From an uncultured archaeon (GTDB taxonomy: Archaea > Asgardarchaeota > Heimdallarchaeia > Heimdallarchaeales > Heimdallarchaeaceae), in NCBI GenBank assembly GCA_964534625.1, contig CAZHRF010000072.1, positions 1 to 10,975 of the forward strand: a stretch of 10,975 nucleotides of DNA. The letters are read 5' to 3'. The translations under genes were made by a program, and so were the position numbers. Below the pieces are notes generated by a model. It did no database searches and had not been told where the DNA came from. It was given only the letters and a program-made list of their open reading frames with translations. This document shows positions 866-6,704 of the stretch, piece after piece (position 1 is the first letter of the stretch; the number at the start of each line of letters is the position of its first letter).

Positions 866-2113
866 TTAATCGGGGAACTTTATCCTTATATACACATCTG
901 GTTCTTCGCCATTCCGCTCTAGTCCAGTTACAAATAATGTTTCATAATTACGTATATTTAATTCTTGTAGAGTAGCATTCTTTTTTGCTTCTTGCATATT
1001 TTGTCTATCAATGATCCAAAAATTGGGTAGATATTCAGGATCAAAGGTATACCCTTCTTTCTTTATAAGAGGTAAGATCATATCTATTGTCGTGGTAGGA
1101 GTAACTTTTATTTCAATCATATCAGGCTTGAATGACCCACATAATTGACAGTTCTTATTTGGAGGTTTCTTAAACTGATAAAATTTACCAACTAAGCCAT
1201 TGTATATTAGATAATCTTCATTCATCGTGCCTAATTCTATACCTTTTTGATGGTGTAAAATTTTCACCGCTTCTTGTGATTGAATTGATGCCATAACTGC
1301 ATTAATAGTTATAATAGTAGGATCATGTTGATCAACCATTTTTACAGCCTCATCTATTGTAAATTCACTCTCTCCAGGAAAGTGTTCTTTTACTAGTTTA
1401 TTCGCATACTCTAATACCATCTCCATCTCATTTATTTCCGTTGTATCCGGTGGCCTATTAAATTTCGATTCAAAAAATAGTTGTCCTTTAAGTAAACAGT
1501 GACTTCTTTTTCTTGGTATTCCAACCAATGTACATGCAGCCAGCGTTTCTCTTTCTGGTTCAATTTGGGGATCACATTGTAAACAAGCATTTTTCCCGGG
1601 TAAATAGGTATATACATGCCCATAATATGTCTGTGTTCCTGCATCAATCAAAGGTTTTTGAAAATGTACTGCTCTCCTCATTAATTCATTTCTTGCTGCT
1701 ACTGAATCTAGTCCTGCAATTATCAAATCTGCTTTTGCATAAATTTCTGGATCAACATTTTCCAAAGGTTTGTAATGCCATTCATATTCGCTAAACGGGT
1801 TAATCTTCTTTAATGTCCTGGCTGCCACTTTAGCTTTTGGTTCTCCTTCTTCAGCATCATAAAATAATATTTGTCTATTAAGATTAGAATATTCCACAAA
1901 ATCAAGATCAATCAGATGAAGCTTACCTACCCCCGCCATAGCTAAATTTTTAGCTACTTCAACACCTAACCCCCCTACACCAGCTATAATAACAGTTGAT
2001 TGTTTTAGGGCTTGTTGACTCCACCCAGGTAATCGCAATTGTCTATCTAAACGTTTTCTCTCTTCCTTATCAAAAGTTTCATCAAAAAAATTTGATTGAT
2101 ACCCTTTACTCAT
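866..2113 (-). CDS. Ubiquitin-like activating enzyme E1 (ThiF adenylation domain, catalytic Cys insert, C-terminal ubiquitin-fold domain), UBA2/UBA3-like
   Basis: RLDRQLRL, GVGGLG nucleotide-binding loop, DLDFVEYSNLNRQILF, GLDS, PLIDAGT, two Zn CxxC pairs (C177/C180, C322/C325), catalytic Cys194 in ACTLVGIPRKRSHC (cf. UBA3 MCTIASMPRLPEHC), and an ~85-aa C-terminal extension consistent with a UFD. Confidence 0.92.
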   Translation of the reverse strand: MSKGYQSNFFDETFDKEERKRLDRQLRLPGWSQQALKQSTVIIAGVGGLGVEVAKNLAMAGVGKLHLIDLDFVEYSNLNRQILFYDAEEGEPKAKVAARTLKKINPFSEYEWHYKPLENVDPEIYAKADLIIAGLDSVAARNELMRRAVHFQKPLIDAGTQTYYGHVYTYLPGKNACLQCDPQIEPERETLAACTLVGIPRKRSHCLLKGQLFFESKFNRPPDTTEINEMEMVLEYANKLVKEHFPGESEFTIDEAVKMVDQHDPTIITINAVMASIQSQEAVKILHHQKGIELGTMNEDYLIYNGLVGKFYQFKKPPNKNCQLCGSFKPDMIEIKVTPTTTIDMILPLIKKEGYTFDPEYLPNFWIIDRQNMQEAKKNATLQELNIRNYETLFVTGLERNGEEPDVYIRIKFPD

Positions 2114-2264: not shown

Positions 2265-2630
2265 TTAACCTGCTGTTGAAACTGGTATCAACAGTACGGT
2301 ATCCCCATCTTCAACACCATAATCTTTCAAAGCATCATCAGGATCACATGTTCTCCCAGCATGACTCAGATGGAATTCTTCTGGAGGTAATCCAAATATT
2401 TGGCCAACAGTATATTTCAAATCTGCAATAGGTGCTTCTTCAGATACAACTAACTTTTCTTGTTTAGGGTTTGGACCAATTGTACTTTGGAAATACACAC
2501 TTATTTTCTTTCCTTTGGGTGTTTTGGCTGTTGCAGGCGTCTTAGATTTAATAGGTTCTTCATCTTCAAATTCTTCTTCATCAAAATCCAATTCTTCAAA
2601 TTTTTCCTCTTCTTCACTCATGTTTTTCAC
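2265..2630 (-). CDS. Ubiquitin-like modifier (beta-grasp fold) with acidic N-terminal extension; C-terminus ...LLIPVSTAG-stop
   Basis: The last 42 aa align without gaps to ubiquitin residues 35-76 (GLPPEEFHLSHAGRTCDPDDALKDYGVEDGDTVLLIPVSTAG vs [42 protein letters not shown]). The true start is probably ATG at 2621 (118 aa), with the GTG at 2630 being part of a GAAGTGA RBS. Confidence 0.9.
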   Translation of the reverse strand: MKNMSEEEEKFEELDFDEEEFEDEEPIKSKTPATAKTPKGKKISVYFQSTIGPNPKQEKLVVSEEAPIADLKYTVGQIFGLPPEEFHLSHAGRTCDPDDALKDYGVEDGDTVLLIPVSTAG

Positions 2631-2784: not shown

Positions 2785-3573
2785 ATGGTCGACTCTACTT
2801 TGGTGAACAGCTTGAGACGAAATAACAAAAAACAAAAAGAGAGGATAAAATCTAAAACACCAGATAAGAAAGAAATTAAACGTAAAGCAAAAATTTCTAA
2901 AAGTAAAATTCCTACAGATGGTGAAGAAATAATTCTTCCTCCGGCAAAAAAAAATGTTCATCCCGTGAATGATAAAATACCCAAACAATCTGTTTTAGAA
3001 CAAGAAAGAGAGAGGAATCAATCTTTAACAAAAACTAAAATGCCTAATAAACATAAAGTTCCAGGAAAACAGAAACATAAATATTTTCCAGAAAAGAAGA
3101 ATAAAAAAATACCTAAAGAACGTATAAAGGATAAAAAACCTAAGAAAGACACGTTGGCTAATGATAAAACAAATAGTTTGATTCCCCCTAGATCATCACC
3201 TAAGGATACACCAGACGCAATACCATCTAAATCACGAATCAAAAAAGTTTCTAGATTAAAGAATACAGCACTAAAAAGAGAAAGAAGACAAAGAGAGGAA
3301 CCAGAAAGATCAAAATTCAGGAAACTATTATCTTTATTGTCTAGACCATTGACTAGAAAAGACAAAGAAGAGGCTCTCCCAAATGATGATTCTGATCTTT
3401 TTACCTCTCCAGAACCTATAGAATCACAACCAGTACCAGATGAACCAAAAAGAACTGAACAAAAAGAACGTTCAACACCTGTGACAAAAACAATCAGAGA
3501 AGAAAAAAAGCCTAAAAGAGTAAAAACGCCTAAAAAGGTAAAAACGCCCAAAAAAGATAAAATACCAAAATAA
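2785..3573 (+). CDS. Hypothetical Lys/Arg/Pro-rich, probably disordered protein with C-terminal KTPKK repeats
   Basis: 789-nt open frame, basic low-complexity composition, in-frame 18-nt repeats, no recognisable globular domain; fills the gap between two minus-strand genes. Confidence 0.7.
   Translation: MVDSTLVNSLRRNNKKQKERIKSKTPDKKEIKRKAKISKSKIPTDGEEIILPPAKKNVHPVNDKIPKQSVLEQERERNQSLTKTKMPNKHKVPGKQKHKYFPEKKNKKIPKERIKDKKPKKDTLANDKTNSLIPPRSSPKDTPDAIPSKSRIKKVSRLKNTALKRERRQREEPERSKFRKLLSLLSRPLTRKDKEEALPNDDSDLFTSPEPIESQPVPDEPKRTEQKERSTPVTKTIREEKKPKRVKTPKKVKTPKKDKIPK
3502..3573 (+). repeat. Four degenerate 18-nt tandem repeats encoding EKKPKR-VKTPKK-VKTPKK-DKIPK*
   Basis: gaaaaaaagcctaaaaga / gtaaaaacgcctaaaaag / gtaaaaacgcccaaaaaa / gataaaataccaaaataa; the two central units differ only at synonymous positions. 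Confidence 0.8.
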
Positions 3574-3614: not shown

Positions 3615-4202
3615 TCATACAAACAAGGCTATAATTCCGCTATATAAATACAATCCCCCAAATATTATTAGAAAGAGATTATTCAGATAAAGAAATGAAG
3701 TAAGGAAATATGCCAAAGGGATCATTATTGTGAGCATAAAAGCTGTAAATTTTGGAGGTAAACCACCTTCACTTGTACCTGTTAATCTTATGAATGGGTA
3801 ACGAATATAGCTCCTAAACAACAAATAATTGCTGAAGATGTAATAAGGAGTTATGAGTATATCTACCACATTAATTGAATAAGTAAGATCTATATTCTCC
3901 CCTTGCAACTGGCCTGTTATAAATACCATTGCTTCATTTATTTCAAATATGCTTTGAGCCAAAATTAAGATTAGAGGAATTAGGGGTAAAAAAACAACAT
4001 ATGCCACTTCATTGAAGGTTGCGCTGTGTCTAACATAATAAATACTTCTAAACATATAAAATAAAGAAATAAACGCATATAATGCTAAGAAAACAAACAT
4101 TTTTCCATTAAACGAATTCCCTTCTATAAAATAATAGATCGCTATTCCTACTAAGGAAAGAGAGATCAAAAAAGAAGCGGTACCATATAATTTTCTACCC
4201 AT
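3615..4202 (-). CDS. Multi-pass membrane protein (about 6 TM), apparent paralog of the adjacent E3's membrane domain
   Basis: Several long hydrophobic segments; GGAGATGA RBS; in-register identities with the N-terminal domain of 4291..5403. Confidence 0.8.
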   Translation of the reverse strand: MGRKLYGTASFLISLSLVGIAIYYFIEGNSFNGKMFVFLALYAFISLFYMFRSIYYVRHSATFNEVAYVVFLPLIPLILILAQSIFEINEAMVFITGQLQGENIDLTYSINVVDILITPYYIFSNYLLFRSYIRYPFIRLTGTSEGGLPPKFTAFMLTIMIPLAYFLTSFLYLNNLFLIIFGGLYLYSGIIALFV

Positions 4203-4290
4203 TAAAATTCATCTCCAGTATAAATTTATACATTATCTTATTAAATCTTGCACTAATATTTTTATGGTAACAATAAAAATACTTTTGCTC

Positions 4291-5403
4291 TTATCTAATT
4301 TTAGATATGACTTTCTCAACGTAAAATTTGGTGCTCATTCTTAGTTTGGGATGTTTGATATATGCAGCAGATATTTTTGTGTTGCATCTTGGACATAAAT
4401 GAGAATTTGCAAACCACATATTAAGCTCATCCTCATGTGCTGGATACTTACAATGAGGGCATAATATCACTCGTCTTTTATCATTCTTCTTAAAATCTTG
4501 ATAACAAATTATACACTTTAAATCGTCTTTTGTTAATTTTCCTTTTGGTCTAATATTGATTTTACGTGTTTTTCTTTTTGTTTTCGACCTAGTTCTTCTA
4601 GTACTATCCACTTCTATTCCAGGATCCCTGTCAGCTAGAGCATCACTTGACGAAGACCTAGCTGTTGAATCCCTACTTGATCTAGTCGAGACTGTTCGAT
4701 AGCCATTTGATGGTCTTGTGGAAACCGGTCTATGTCTTGATGAGCGCCTGTTAGAAGAGCGACTACCTGTCCTACTTTTTGTTGTTGATCTTCTTGATGT
4801 ACTAGCACTTTTTTTACGAACGGCTGGTATTATATAATGTATCAACATCTGACTGAAAAATATAATGATAAATAGTATCGCTGTTATATCATATACTGCA
4901 GTTAAAAACACATATCGTATCCCTAGTATTAAAGTTAAAAGCAAATGAACTAAAACGGGTAAGGCTTGTTTTCTGATTATTTTTCTATTTATTGCCATTG
5001 CTGCCCATTTTTTACTATGAAAATTTCTAAAGTGTATGGAGAGAATTAACAGAGGGACAACTAGACTAATAGAGATTGTATTTGTGATTATTCGTATATA
5101 AAAAAAAGGCAATTCAAGCGCCAATCCCAAATATAAGTTATCTTGTATTATAGGCGAAACATATGTGCCAAATACAAGAATAACGTAAGGTAAAACTATA
5201 AACTGTAAACTTGCTAGTATTGCATTATAGCTTCTATAATAACTACGTTCTAACAAAAATTTTAATCCTGCTATGATATAGATTGTAATGTATAAAACGA
5301 GTAAACTTGTTTCTATGGCTTTGTCTATCAAGAAGTACAATAAACTTACCATTAGACCTAAAATAGCTAAACTAAGATATGTTTTACTGTTATTTAGATC
5401 CAA
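4291..5403 (-). CDS. Membrane-anchored RING-type E3 ligase (about 6 TM, Ser/Arg-rich linker, C-terminal variant RING)
   Basis: aa 1-195 hydrophobic; aa 196-289 S/R/T/K-rich; CIIC-x14-CPHC-x4-HEDE-LNMW-x6-CPRC with the E2-contact Ile, Trp and Pro of RING ligases; TTG start; clustered with E2 and JAB genes. Confidence 0.82.
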   Translation of the reverse strand: MDLNNSKTYLSLAILGLMVSLLYFLIDKAIETSLLVLYITIYIIAGLKFLLERSYYRSYNAILASLQFIVLPYVILVFGTYVSPIIQDNLYLGLALELPFFYIRIITNTISISLVVPLLILSIHFRNFHSKKWAAMAINRKIIRKQALPVLVHLLLTLILGIRYVFLTAVYDITAILFIIIFFSQMLIHYIIPAVRKKSASTSRRSTTKSRTGSRSSNRRSSRHRPVSTRPSNGYRTVSTRSSRDSTARSSSSDALADRDPGIEVDSTRRTRSKTKRKTRKINIRPKGKLTKDDLKCIICYQDFKKNDKRRVILCPHCKYPAHEDELNMWFANSHLCPRCNTKISAAYIKHPKLRMSTKFYVEKVISKIR

Positions 5404-5454: not shown

Positions 5455-6189
5455 CTATTTATTCATTATTAGCTGGATTGAATCATAAGCTGCTTCTGTA
5501 CTTAATCCTTCTACTTCAAAATCAATTGCATAATACGATTGTTTATCTTCAGCCACTCTAAAAATTTTAAACCCATACGAGTTTTCAGAGATCATTAAAG
5601 GATCAACTACCAAGGCTATAGATCGATTCCAAAAAGTTTGGTATCTTAAATGCGTTCTAATATCATCATCACTCAAAAACGGAGTGTACGAAGGATGTGA
5701 ATGAGCCCAACCTATAATAAACTGTTTATCTTTCATTTTTTCTACAATTTCAGTAAAGATTTTTTGATCAATAATTTCAACTTTTACAGCATCACCTTGT
5801 GTCACTGGCCAATAATCTCGAACAACTAGTTGTTCAATAGGCGTATCTTCATTTTTGATAAAACCTGTAAGTAGCCCTATTATCTCAACCCATTTTTTTT
5901 GAGGAATAGTCCTATTAGCATAAGATAAAGCGTGTTTTGATAGTTTTAGATATGCTTTTGGCTTGATTACTATCTCAGGTTTTTGTTCAATGGAAATAGT
6001 CTCTTCGGTAATGTCAGCATCAAACTCTTCATTATCTTCATCGTCTATGGGTATTTCGTCTTCCATTTCCATATCTTCAATATGTAATTTTTTTTCTATC
6101 GCTTGAACTTTTTTTAACAGCTCTCTATAAGTAATAGGGATGGTTTCTTTTTCCTCATCTTTCATTTTTTTCACCAACATATCTACCAA
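5455..6189 (-). CDS. MPN+/JAMM (JAB) metallo-isopeptidase, Rpn11/CSN5/AMSH-like, with acidic N-terminal extension
   Basis: Catalytic Glu in VEIIGLLTG; GWAHSHPSYTPFLSDDD fits HxH-x7-S-x2-D; ALVVDP. The start may instead be ATG 6180 or ATG 6165 (the latter is preceded by GGTGA-AAAAAA). Confidence 0.92.
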   Translation of the reverse strand: MVDMLVKKMKDEEKETIPITYRELLKKVQAIEKKLHIEDMEMEDEIPIDDEDNEEFDADITEETISIEQKPEIVIKPKAYLKLSKHALSYANRTIPQKKWVEIIGLLTGFIKNEDTPIEQLVVRDYWPVTQGDAVKVEIIDQKIFTEIVEKMKDKQFIIGWAHSHPSYTPFLSDDDIRTHLRYQTFWNRSIALVVDPLMISENSYGFKIFRVAEDKQSYYAIDFEVEGLSTEAAYDSIQLIMNK

Positions 6190-6704
6190 TATGATTTAGC
6201 GTATTTTTTGTTGATGGATTTTGCTTTCTTGACAAATTTTCGCTTATTATTCAAAAATTCGATAGCTGCTTTCTTATTAAAAACATCATTAGGATTGATA
6301 AAAGCACCATCAACATTGAACATAGCTAAAATCGAATATATGACGGTGTTAATATTTTTACTTGGTGACCATCCATCAGGTTTACCGATTAAATCATTAT
6401 CAACTAACGCAAGACAAATATTACGTTTTCCCGGATATTCCTTAGGATTAGGCCAGAAATTAGGATGCCATATAGGTGTATGCAATCTTACAAACGGAGG
6501 TTTATAGGGATAGTTTTTGCCAAACTTAATTTCTAGTTTATATTTGCCGCCCACATAAGGCGTCCCCCTCGGTCCTTTAAATCCTACTGCCAAATGTGTC
6601 ATAGTCTTTTTGCCTGTAGGAAAAGATTTTACTTGCTCAATTATTCCCTCTTTATGTAATTTTCTGAGGCTTTCATATTCTTTTATAATCCTTTGTTTTC
6701 TCAT
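6183..6704 (-). CDS. Ubiquitin-conjugating enzyme E2 (UBC fold)
   Basis: RIIKEY helix 1, GPRGTPYVGG, YPYKPPFV, IWHPN, catalytic Cys in NICL, WSP, and NPNDVFNKKAA. Confidence 0.95.
   Translation of the reverse strand: MRKQRIIKEYESLRKLHKEGIIEQVKSFPTGKKTMTHLAVGFKGPRGTPYVGGKYKLEIKFGKNYPYKPPFVRLHTPIWHPNFWPNPKEYPGKRNICLALVDNDLIGKPDGWSPSKNINTVIYSILAMFNVDGAFINPNDVFNKKAAIEFLNNKRKFVKKAKSINKKYAKSYW

Follow-up and report, generated by a model that had tools for sequence, protein, structure and literature searches.

An apparent RING-less paralogue of the membrane domain of a putative RING-type ubiquitin ligase in a gene cluster of a Heimdall-group archaeon

The ubiquitin operons of Candidatus Caldiarchaeum subterraneum and of Asgard archaea bring together genes for ubiquitin (Ub), an E1-like and an E2-like enzyme, a small RING finger protein and an Rpn11/JAMM protein (PMC5654768, PMC6043591). 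The same gene set, comprising a ThiF-type E1, a UQ_con-type E2, a modifier, a JAMM protein and a RING protein, is clustered in an operon-like manner in the window analysed here, which is the whole 10,975-nucleotide stretch of contig CAZHRF010000072.1 from an uncultured archaeon of the family Heimdallarchaeaceae. The locus differs from the Caldiarchaeum-type operon in its ligase. Whereas the E3 of that operon is a small soluble RING protein, here the RING is carried on a 195-amino-acid six-helix membrane domain within a protein of 370 amino acids, hereafter B, and the ligase is accompanied by what is almost certainly a RING-less copy of its own membrane domain, a protein of 195 amino acids, hereafter A. 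A search of the literature, whose coverage excluded many subscription papers, gave no description of a membrane RING ligase or of a RING-less twin in Asgard operons. Descriptions and reconstitutions of archaeal ubiquitin operons have involved small soluble RING proteins. A RING ligase embedded in the membrane would widen the existing picture of these operons.

The original prediction had placed both open reading frames (ORFs) on the minus strand and had read A as a duplicate of the membrane domain of the ligase. The frames are found where it placed them (Table 1), and the hydrophobic domain of B does stop at about residue 195, beyond which the translation continues with RKKSAS and a Ser/Arg/Thr-rich linker; A possesses neither linker nor RING. 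Pairwise BLASTP of A against B residues 1-200 returns an expectation value (E) of 0.073 over 69 residues, which is not significant alone. The ungapped register that begins at Met1 is the best of 31 offsets (-15 to +15) and contains 29 identities in 195 positions (15%), with a BLOSUM62 score of -8 as against -127 +/- 29 in composition shuffles (z 4). For profile comparison, the A and B families were gathered from 40 related genomes. The A profile matches that of B residues 1-205 in hhalign with a probability of 93% (P 3e-7); 32 A-type against 22 B-type sequences give 94.9% (P 4.5e-8, 130 columns), and the addition of more diverse members raises this to 96.8% (P 2.7e-10, 165 columns, or 185 columns in global mode). 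The match thus strengthens with family diversity, as homology predicts.

Shuffled profiles provide the control for composition and layout. The native A-B profile score is 50.8, as compared to 13.4 +/- 2.1 for fully shuffled B columns, 14.3 +/- 2.9 for shuffles within 20-column windows, and 15.3 +/- 2.8 with a maximum of 23.6 for shuffles within 8-column windows, in which the helix and loop layout is kept; the reversed B profile scores 9.8 against A. When the B-domain profile is run against the genome that contains the window (9318 ORFs in six frames), the top non-self match is A (E 0.0015), and the broad B profile also detects A-type ORFs in two other genomes. Profile-to-sequence alignments between the two families keep the same order between about position 8 and position 186. 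A and the six-helix membrane domain at the N-terminus of B are almost certainly genuine, though distant, paralogues, and the predicted homologous duplication is borne out both by the hhalign P values and by the distance of the native score from the shuffles.

Positions common to the two families in the joint alignment include a Gly in helix 1, the sequence Y-Y-x-[KR]-[HY]-x-A at the end of helix 2, Phe68, a Pro in helix 3, an invariant Pro in helix 4, and an Arg-aromatic-(Pro) element that follows helix 4. The gapless register from Met1 that had been proposed for the two proteins is correct from Y23 to A61 but not beyond those limits. The profile and MAFFT alignments place helix 1 in a register that differs by 3 residues, pairing S14-G19 of A with S11-G16 of B, and the matches claimed at T8, L12, L15 and L17 are therefore coincidental. 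After A61 gaps are needed, B being 4 residues shorter ahead of the conserved Pro. The later blocks that had been proposed as equivalent, TYSINVVDILITPYYIFS / TNTISISLVVPLLILS and MLTIMIPLAY / LLTLILGIRY, are aligned likewise by the programs.

The two membrane domains are also predicted to be built alike. AlphaFold2 models were constructed separately, each from its own family alignment, with a predicted local distance difference test (pLDDT) of 88.4 and a predicted template modelling score (pTM) of 0.83 for A, and of 86.3 and 0.80 for the B domain. The model of A consists of six long helices with a beta hairpin between helices 3 and 4. The order of elements is identical in the two models, with near-identical lengths and offsets of at most 3-4 residues, and both place a hairpin of 8+7 residues and a helix of 5 residues between helices 3 and 4 (Table 1). 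In both families Lys and Arg are enriched in loops 2-3 and 4-5, and additionally in the C-terminal flank of B, with acidic residues (Asp and Glu) in loops 1-2, 3-4 and 5-6. By the positive-inside rule, this bias predicts that both A and B have N- and C-termini inside, an orientation that places the linker and RING of B in the cytoplasm with E1, E2 and modifier. Models and charge bias thus agree with the similar topologies that had been anticipated.

The A/B membrane domain is an unclassified family that corresponds to no Pfam or NCBIfam entry and has no solved relative. A as a whole has no match in either collection, and B has only two sub-threshold, meaningless matches in NCBIfam. Foldseek finds nothing in the Protein Data Bank (PDB) at E <= 0.001 for either model, and a hidden Markov model of the joint family has no match to PDB sequences at E <= 1. 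With VIA-align, the best Z for model A among 48,161 chains is 8.3, on designed or generic helical proteins and in the noise range for helical models. The top PDB neighbours of the A and B models are common to both, at noise level, and provide a hint only.

The distribution of the family is narrow. A joint A+B profile scored exhaustively against 1.84 billion representative proteins retrieves only 61 cluster representatives, in two length classes of about 190-200 and about 355-465 amino acids plus fragments, and the long-form representatives carry the same variant RING as B; a word-indexed search with B residues 1-200 had given just 3 proteins, and the exhaustive search was used for the distribution. 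Relatives of A are annotated as hypothetical proteins of Heimdallarchaeota or Kariarchaeaceae, and orthologues of A occur in 27 of 41 relatives. Across the phylum Asgardarchaeota, the family is present in 31 of 201 sampled genomes, all belonging to three families of the window's class, and 30 of the 31 possess exactly one short (A) and one long (B) ORF, in agreement with the co-occurrence expected of the pair. The remaining genome, which is 88% complete, has the short form only, and in none of the 31 is the long form of this clade found on its own. A strictly co-inherited RING-less paralogue of the ligase membrane domain is thus seen only in the Heimdall-group class among the sampled genomes.

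A and B usually lie next to each other on one strand, in the order E2-JAMM-E3-A, with a spacer that is similarly short in most relatives. In family f1 the arrangement is E2-JAMM-B-A, an antisense Lys-rich ORF, then Ub-E1. The distant sub-clade f5 and metagenome contigs related to it have Ub-E1-E2-JAMM-B-A with hardly any spacer, and in f5 the stop-to-stop frames of B and A overlap. Family f3 has Ub-Ub-E1-E2-JAMM-B, with A adjacent, nearby on the opposite strand or on a different contig, though always present. The description of the two genes as a tandem therefore suits most genomes, in which A adjoins B, but not several f3 genomes in which they are unlinked. Three families of the Heimdall class, and another class, retain the E2-JAMM-E3 core along with Ub and E1. 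Relatives that are without the A/B pair (the closed genomes G004 and G007, and also G001 and G030) have no match to this E2 at E <= 1e-10, and with this query the cluster therefore seems to be acquired or lost as a whole within the family.

When the membrane domains are placed in a tree, the A type and the B type fall into separate clades with a single long branch of full support between them, and a deep division recurs in parallel within each clade. The duplication is therefore older than the three families, and ancient. Both copies are under purifying selection, A at least as strongly as the membrane domain of B; A has a ratio of nonsynonymous to synonymous substitution rates (dN/dS) of 0.05-0.21, and the B domain one of 0.08-0.19. 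That A could be a decaying gene fragment is ruled out by its constant length across the three families together with dN/dS <= 0.21.

A third group, S, emerges with a broader B-domain profile in another Asgard class, where it is found in 17 of 40 and 1 of 1 genomes of two families. Each such genome encodes one S protein of 353-397 amino acids, consisting of the six-helix domain, a Thr/Arg-rich linker and a variant RING of the same pattern as that of B, and the S gene ends a Ub-E1-E2-JAMM-E3 operon that has no A-type gene downstream. The profile of S matches that of B at P 9e-14 and that of A at P 3e-6. The element R-x-F-x-[RK]-Y-x-[FV]-I in loop 4-5 is common to A and S and altered in B, and the A stem is the longest in the three-clade tree (2.99, versus 1.51 for B). 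The simplest reading is that an ancestral transmembrane RING ligase was duplicated in the Heimdall-group class, and that one copy lost its RING and evolved fast. As an observation in its own right, the operons with S (L059 861-3450; likewise L060, L061, L063 and L064) carry three ubiquitin-like ORFs, one of which, of 264-274 amino acids and on the opposite strand, matches the modifier at E about 1e-10.

Sequence features of B point to a putative RING-type E3 ubiquitin ligase. Its RING has the pattern C-x2-C-x14-C-x2-C-x4-H-x2-E-x3-W-x6-C-x2-C and matches Pfam zf-RING_2 with E 3e-4 and 21.5 bits, below the cut-off of 27.3; among 31 members of the B family, zf-RING_2 matches 12 and Prok-RING_1 matches 10, and a canonical RING regular expression finds no match. 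C297, C300, C315, C318, H323, E326, W330, C337 and C340 are invariant in the 31 members, so that seven Cys/His residues are fixed, as is Trp330, with an invariant Glu326 at the position expected of the sixth Cys/His ligand. The TTG start of B (5401-5403, minus strand) and an N-terminus of the form M-[DE]-L-N-N are kept in genus-level relatives, and remoter relatives have ATG. In A, conservation is concentrated in two near-invariant cytoplasmic loops, ATFNE after helix 2 and R-x3-RYPFIR...G after helix 4.

Because A and B are always found together, they probably belong to one membrane ligase complex, and this is held, with moderate confidence, to be the best overall explanation of the data. That the two proteins act in the same pathway is likely; for direct assembly of A with B, belief is evenly divided. 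The following course of events may be envisaged. The first event would have been the duplication of an ancestral, perhaps homo-oligomeric, membrane RING ligase, with the B copy keeping the cytoplasmic RING that would recruit the charged E2 of the operon, and the A copy losing its RING yet keeping, and strongly conserving, the ATFNE and R-x3-RYPFIR...G loops. A and B would then pack next to each other, identically oriented, in a single membrane-embedded complex; since the Lys and Arg bias is the same in both, any A-B dimer would be parallel. A would supply a second, non-catalytic membrane and cytoplasmic surface for the binding of substrate or cofactor and B the catalytic RING, and the complex would attach the ubiquitin-like tag to membrane or membrane-proximal proteins on the cytoplasmic face. 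Of the roles that the original prediction had raised for A within a pseudo-symmetric heterodimer, those of substrate receptor and dominant-negative regulator are hypothetical, as is the pseudo-symmetry, and a channel function is pure speculation by analogy.

One lead concerns homologous position 52, where helix 2 ends on the cytoplasmic side. The residue is Glu in 56 of 56 B sequences, Arg or Lys in 36 of 36 A sequences, and mostly Asn in single-copy S. Opposite fixed charges at this position would fit a hetero-contact that evolved from a homomeric one. Complex prediction with the B membrane domain and A scored 0.00 in two runs in which the controls did not fold, and is neutral on binding. A bolder version makes A and B an obligate heterodimer of parallel subunits (or a 2:2 assembly) that derives from a homo-oligomeric single-copy ligase, has a contact between Glu52 and Arg/Lys52, and recognises or partly extracts membrane proteins for tagging; it is rather doubtful.

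Several points weigh against the proposed complex, or at least against its details. Since the RING lies below the Pfam cut-off, with a Glu in place of one ligand, even the ligase activity is presumed; the contact between A and B is likewise a deduction, and substrates of the ligase are hypothetical. A common fold for A and the B domain is suggested by the order of predicted secondary-structure elements and by sequence profiles. The three-clade tree cannot be rooted, which leaves the order of events unproven. Finally, several f3 genomes have A on another contig or on the strand opposite to B, and co-translation of the pair is therefore not obligatory.

Other explanations differ in what they make of the same observations. 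A may be a regulator or antagonist that mimics the ligase membrane domain and competes for substrates or for B-B self-association, thereby damping ubiquitylation as a dominant-negative or decoy. The absence of any RING from A would suit this role, as would its faster divergence (the stems of 2.99 and 1.51), and the opposite charge at position 52 could equally serve a capping interaction. Antagonists are usually dispensable and patchy in distribution, however, whereas no sampled genome has B without A; A is as constrained as B, and the adjacency of the two genes on one strand of a single operon suggests that they are expressed in step and not in opposition. On balance such a role is unlikely. 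Lower still is the probability that A has an independent membrane function, in transport or in membrane-protein handling, and is found near B through common history only. Its top conserved motifs, ATFNE and RYPFIR, do differ from those of B, and in some genomes its gene is unlinked from that of B, but it is difficult to reconcile mere common history with strict A/B co-occurrence across three families even where the genes are unlinked, with the joint loss of A/B and the operon's E2 in related genomes, or with the occurrence of the family in only these two architectures among the 1.84 billion representatives.

The direction of the duplication may also be questioned. If a stand-alone A-like protein were ancestral, one copy would have gained linker and RING to give B and S, and the class with S would have lost the stand-alone copy. 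The unrooted three-clade tree would allow its root to be placed on the A branch, and A and S have in common the loop 4-5 motif that is altered in B; this history nonetheless needs an extra loss, among the sampled genomes A-type genes are confined to the class in which B is also found, and the profile of S resembles that of B far more than that of A, which together make it distinctly improbable. Regardless of direction, the resemblance itself is hardly a compositional artefact of hydrophobic six-helix proteins of equal length. The pairwise BLASTP value and the 15% ungapped identity would, taken by themselves, permit an artefact, yet layout-preserving shuffles and the reversed profile fall far short of the native score, significance rises with family depth, A is the top non-self match of the B profile in the whole genome, and Pro, Gly and aromatic positions as well as the Y-Y-x-[KR]-H-x-A motif are common to both proteins. 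An artefact is thus effectively excluded, and a complex of the two paralogues is retained as the preferred reading.

The surrounding cluster is summarised in Table 1. The window has a G+C content of about 32%, and its minus strand encodes, in order, E2, JAMM, B, A, the ubiquitin-like modifier and E1. The 3' end of the E2 gene overlaps the start of the JAMM gene by 7 nucleotides (6183-6189), which suggests translational coupling of the two. The modifier terminates in S-T-A-G followed directly by the stop codon (2265-2273, minus strand), with one terminal Gly, no Gly-Gly and no propeptide. Between gene A and the modifier gene lies an antisense ORF (2785-3573, plus strand), convergent with gene A, that encodes a Lys/Pro-rich protein of 262 amino acids with IPKQKIPK-like repeats. 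The protein is probably disordered and belongs to no Pfam family. Four relatives have an ORF of this kind with matching location and direction (L033 7348-8004, L034 4960-5715, L035 4869-5618 and L036 7575-8237). As a Lys-rich protein kept within a ubiquitylation cluster, it is a candidate substrate or cofactor.

Table 1. Features of the cluster, given as window positions, and predicted structural elements of A and the B membrane domain, given as residues
Feature	Window position	Strand	Residues in A	Residues in B	Basis
E2 (UQ_con) gene	6183..6704	-			Pfam UQ_con, 7.9e-27
JAMM/MPN+ deubiquitinase-like gene, directly upstream of ligase gene B	5455..6189	-			Pfam JAB, 2.8e-13
Gene B (RING protein), 370 aa, TTG start	4291..5403	-			ORF list
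Six-helix membrane domain of B, homologous to A	4819..5403	-		1-195	hhalign; AlphaFold2 model
Ser/Arg/Thr/Lys-rich linker of B, probably disordered, cytoplasmic	4519..4818	-		196-295	Translation; weakly conserved in alignment
Variant RING finger of B	4381..4518	-		296-341	Pfam zf-RING_2 and invariant residues
Conserved C-terminal tail of B behind RING, with stop codon	4291..4380	-		342-370	Y361 invariant in family alignment
B-A spacer, 88 nt	4203..4290	-			ORF coordinates
Gene A, 195-aa six-helix membrane protein, RING-less paralogue (almost certain) of B membrane domain	3615..4202	-			ORF list
Ubiquitin-like modifier gene	2265..2630	-			Pfam ubiquitin, 8.9e-8
E1-like (ThiF) gene	866..2113	-			Pfam ThiF, 1e-55
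Helix			2-26	6-27	AlphaFold2
Helix			30-58	30-58	AlphaFold2
Helix			66-85	67-82	AlphaFold2
Strand			93-100	90-97	AlphaFold2
Strand			105-111	102-108	AlphaFold2
Short helix			112-116	109-113	AlphaFold2
Helix			118-133	115-129	AlphaFold2
Helix			150-173	147-168	AlphaFold2
Helix			176-194	173-204	AlphaFold2

If A and B do form a two-subunit ligase, ubiquitin-like tagging at a membrane would predate eukaryotes. The locus is also a compact system of five or six genes in which to study how duplicated subunits come to share out the work of a membrane ligase complex. The same system allows one to ask what is tagged in an archaeon, and the pair is of relevance to the origin of the ubiquitin system.

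Among known systems, paired small multidrug resistance (SMR) transporters such as EbrAB are likewise specified by adjacent paralogous genes and form heterodimers, usually with opposite Lys/Arg bias and antiparallel insertion. A and B resemble them in being encoded by neighbouring, distantly related genes for small polytopic membrane regions of equal length, but A and B have the same Lys/Arg bias, and there is no link to transport. BRCA1-BARD1 and MDM2-MDMX are heteromers of an active subunit and a catalytically dead paralogue, in which the RINGs dimerise and both partners keep a RING. Their logic, a duplication followed by division into catalytic and non-catalytic labour, would also apply to the pair described here, with the difference that it is the membrane domain that has been duplicated and retained and that one partner is without a RING.

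Multi-pass membrane RING ligase complexes are represented by Hrd1 with Der1, Hrd3 and Usa1, in endoplasmic-reticulum-associated degradation (ERAD), and by Pex2-Pex10-Pex12 of peroxisomes. Pex2, Pex10 and Pex12 are paralogous to each other and each retains its RING; Der1 and Hrd1 are unrelated. None of Hrd1, Doa10 and Pex2/10/12 appears among the matches to the A/B family, either with the profile against the PDB (E <= 1), with Foldseek (E <= 0.001) or with VIA-align (best Z 8.3), and any likeness would be one of function, consisting of a cytoplasmic RING on a polytopic membrane domain that, in the known complexes, is joined by further membrane subunits. The partner here differs from theirs in being a RING-less paralogue of the ligase domain itself. 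Should A and B prove to be an obligate heterodimer that recognises or partly extracts membrane proteins for tagging, the pair would be a prokaryotic functional counterpart of the ERAD-type and peroxisomal ligase complexes, in the archaeal class nearest to eukaryotes.

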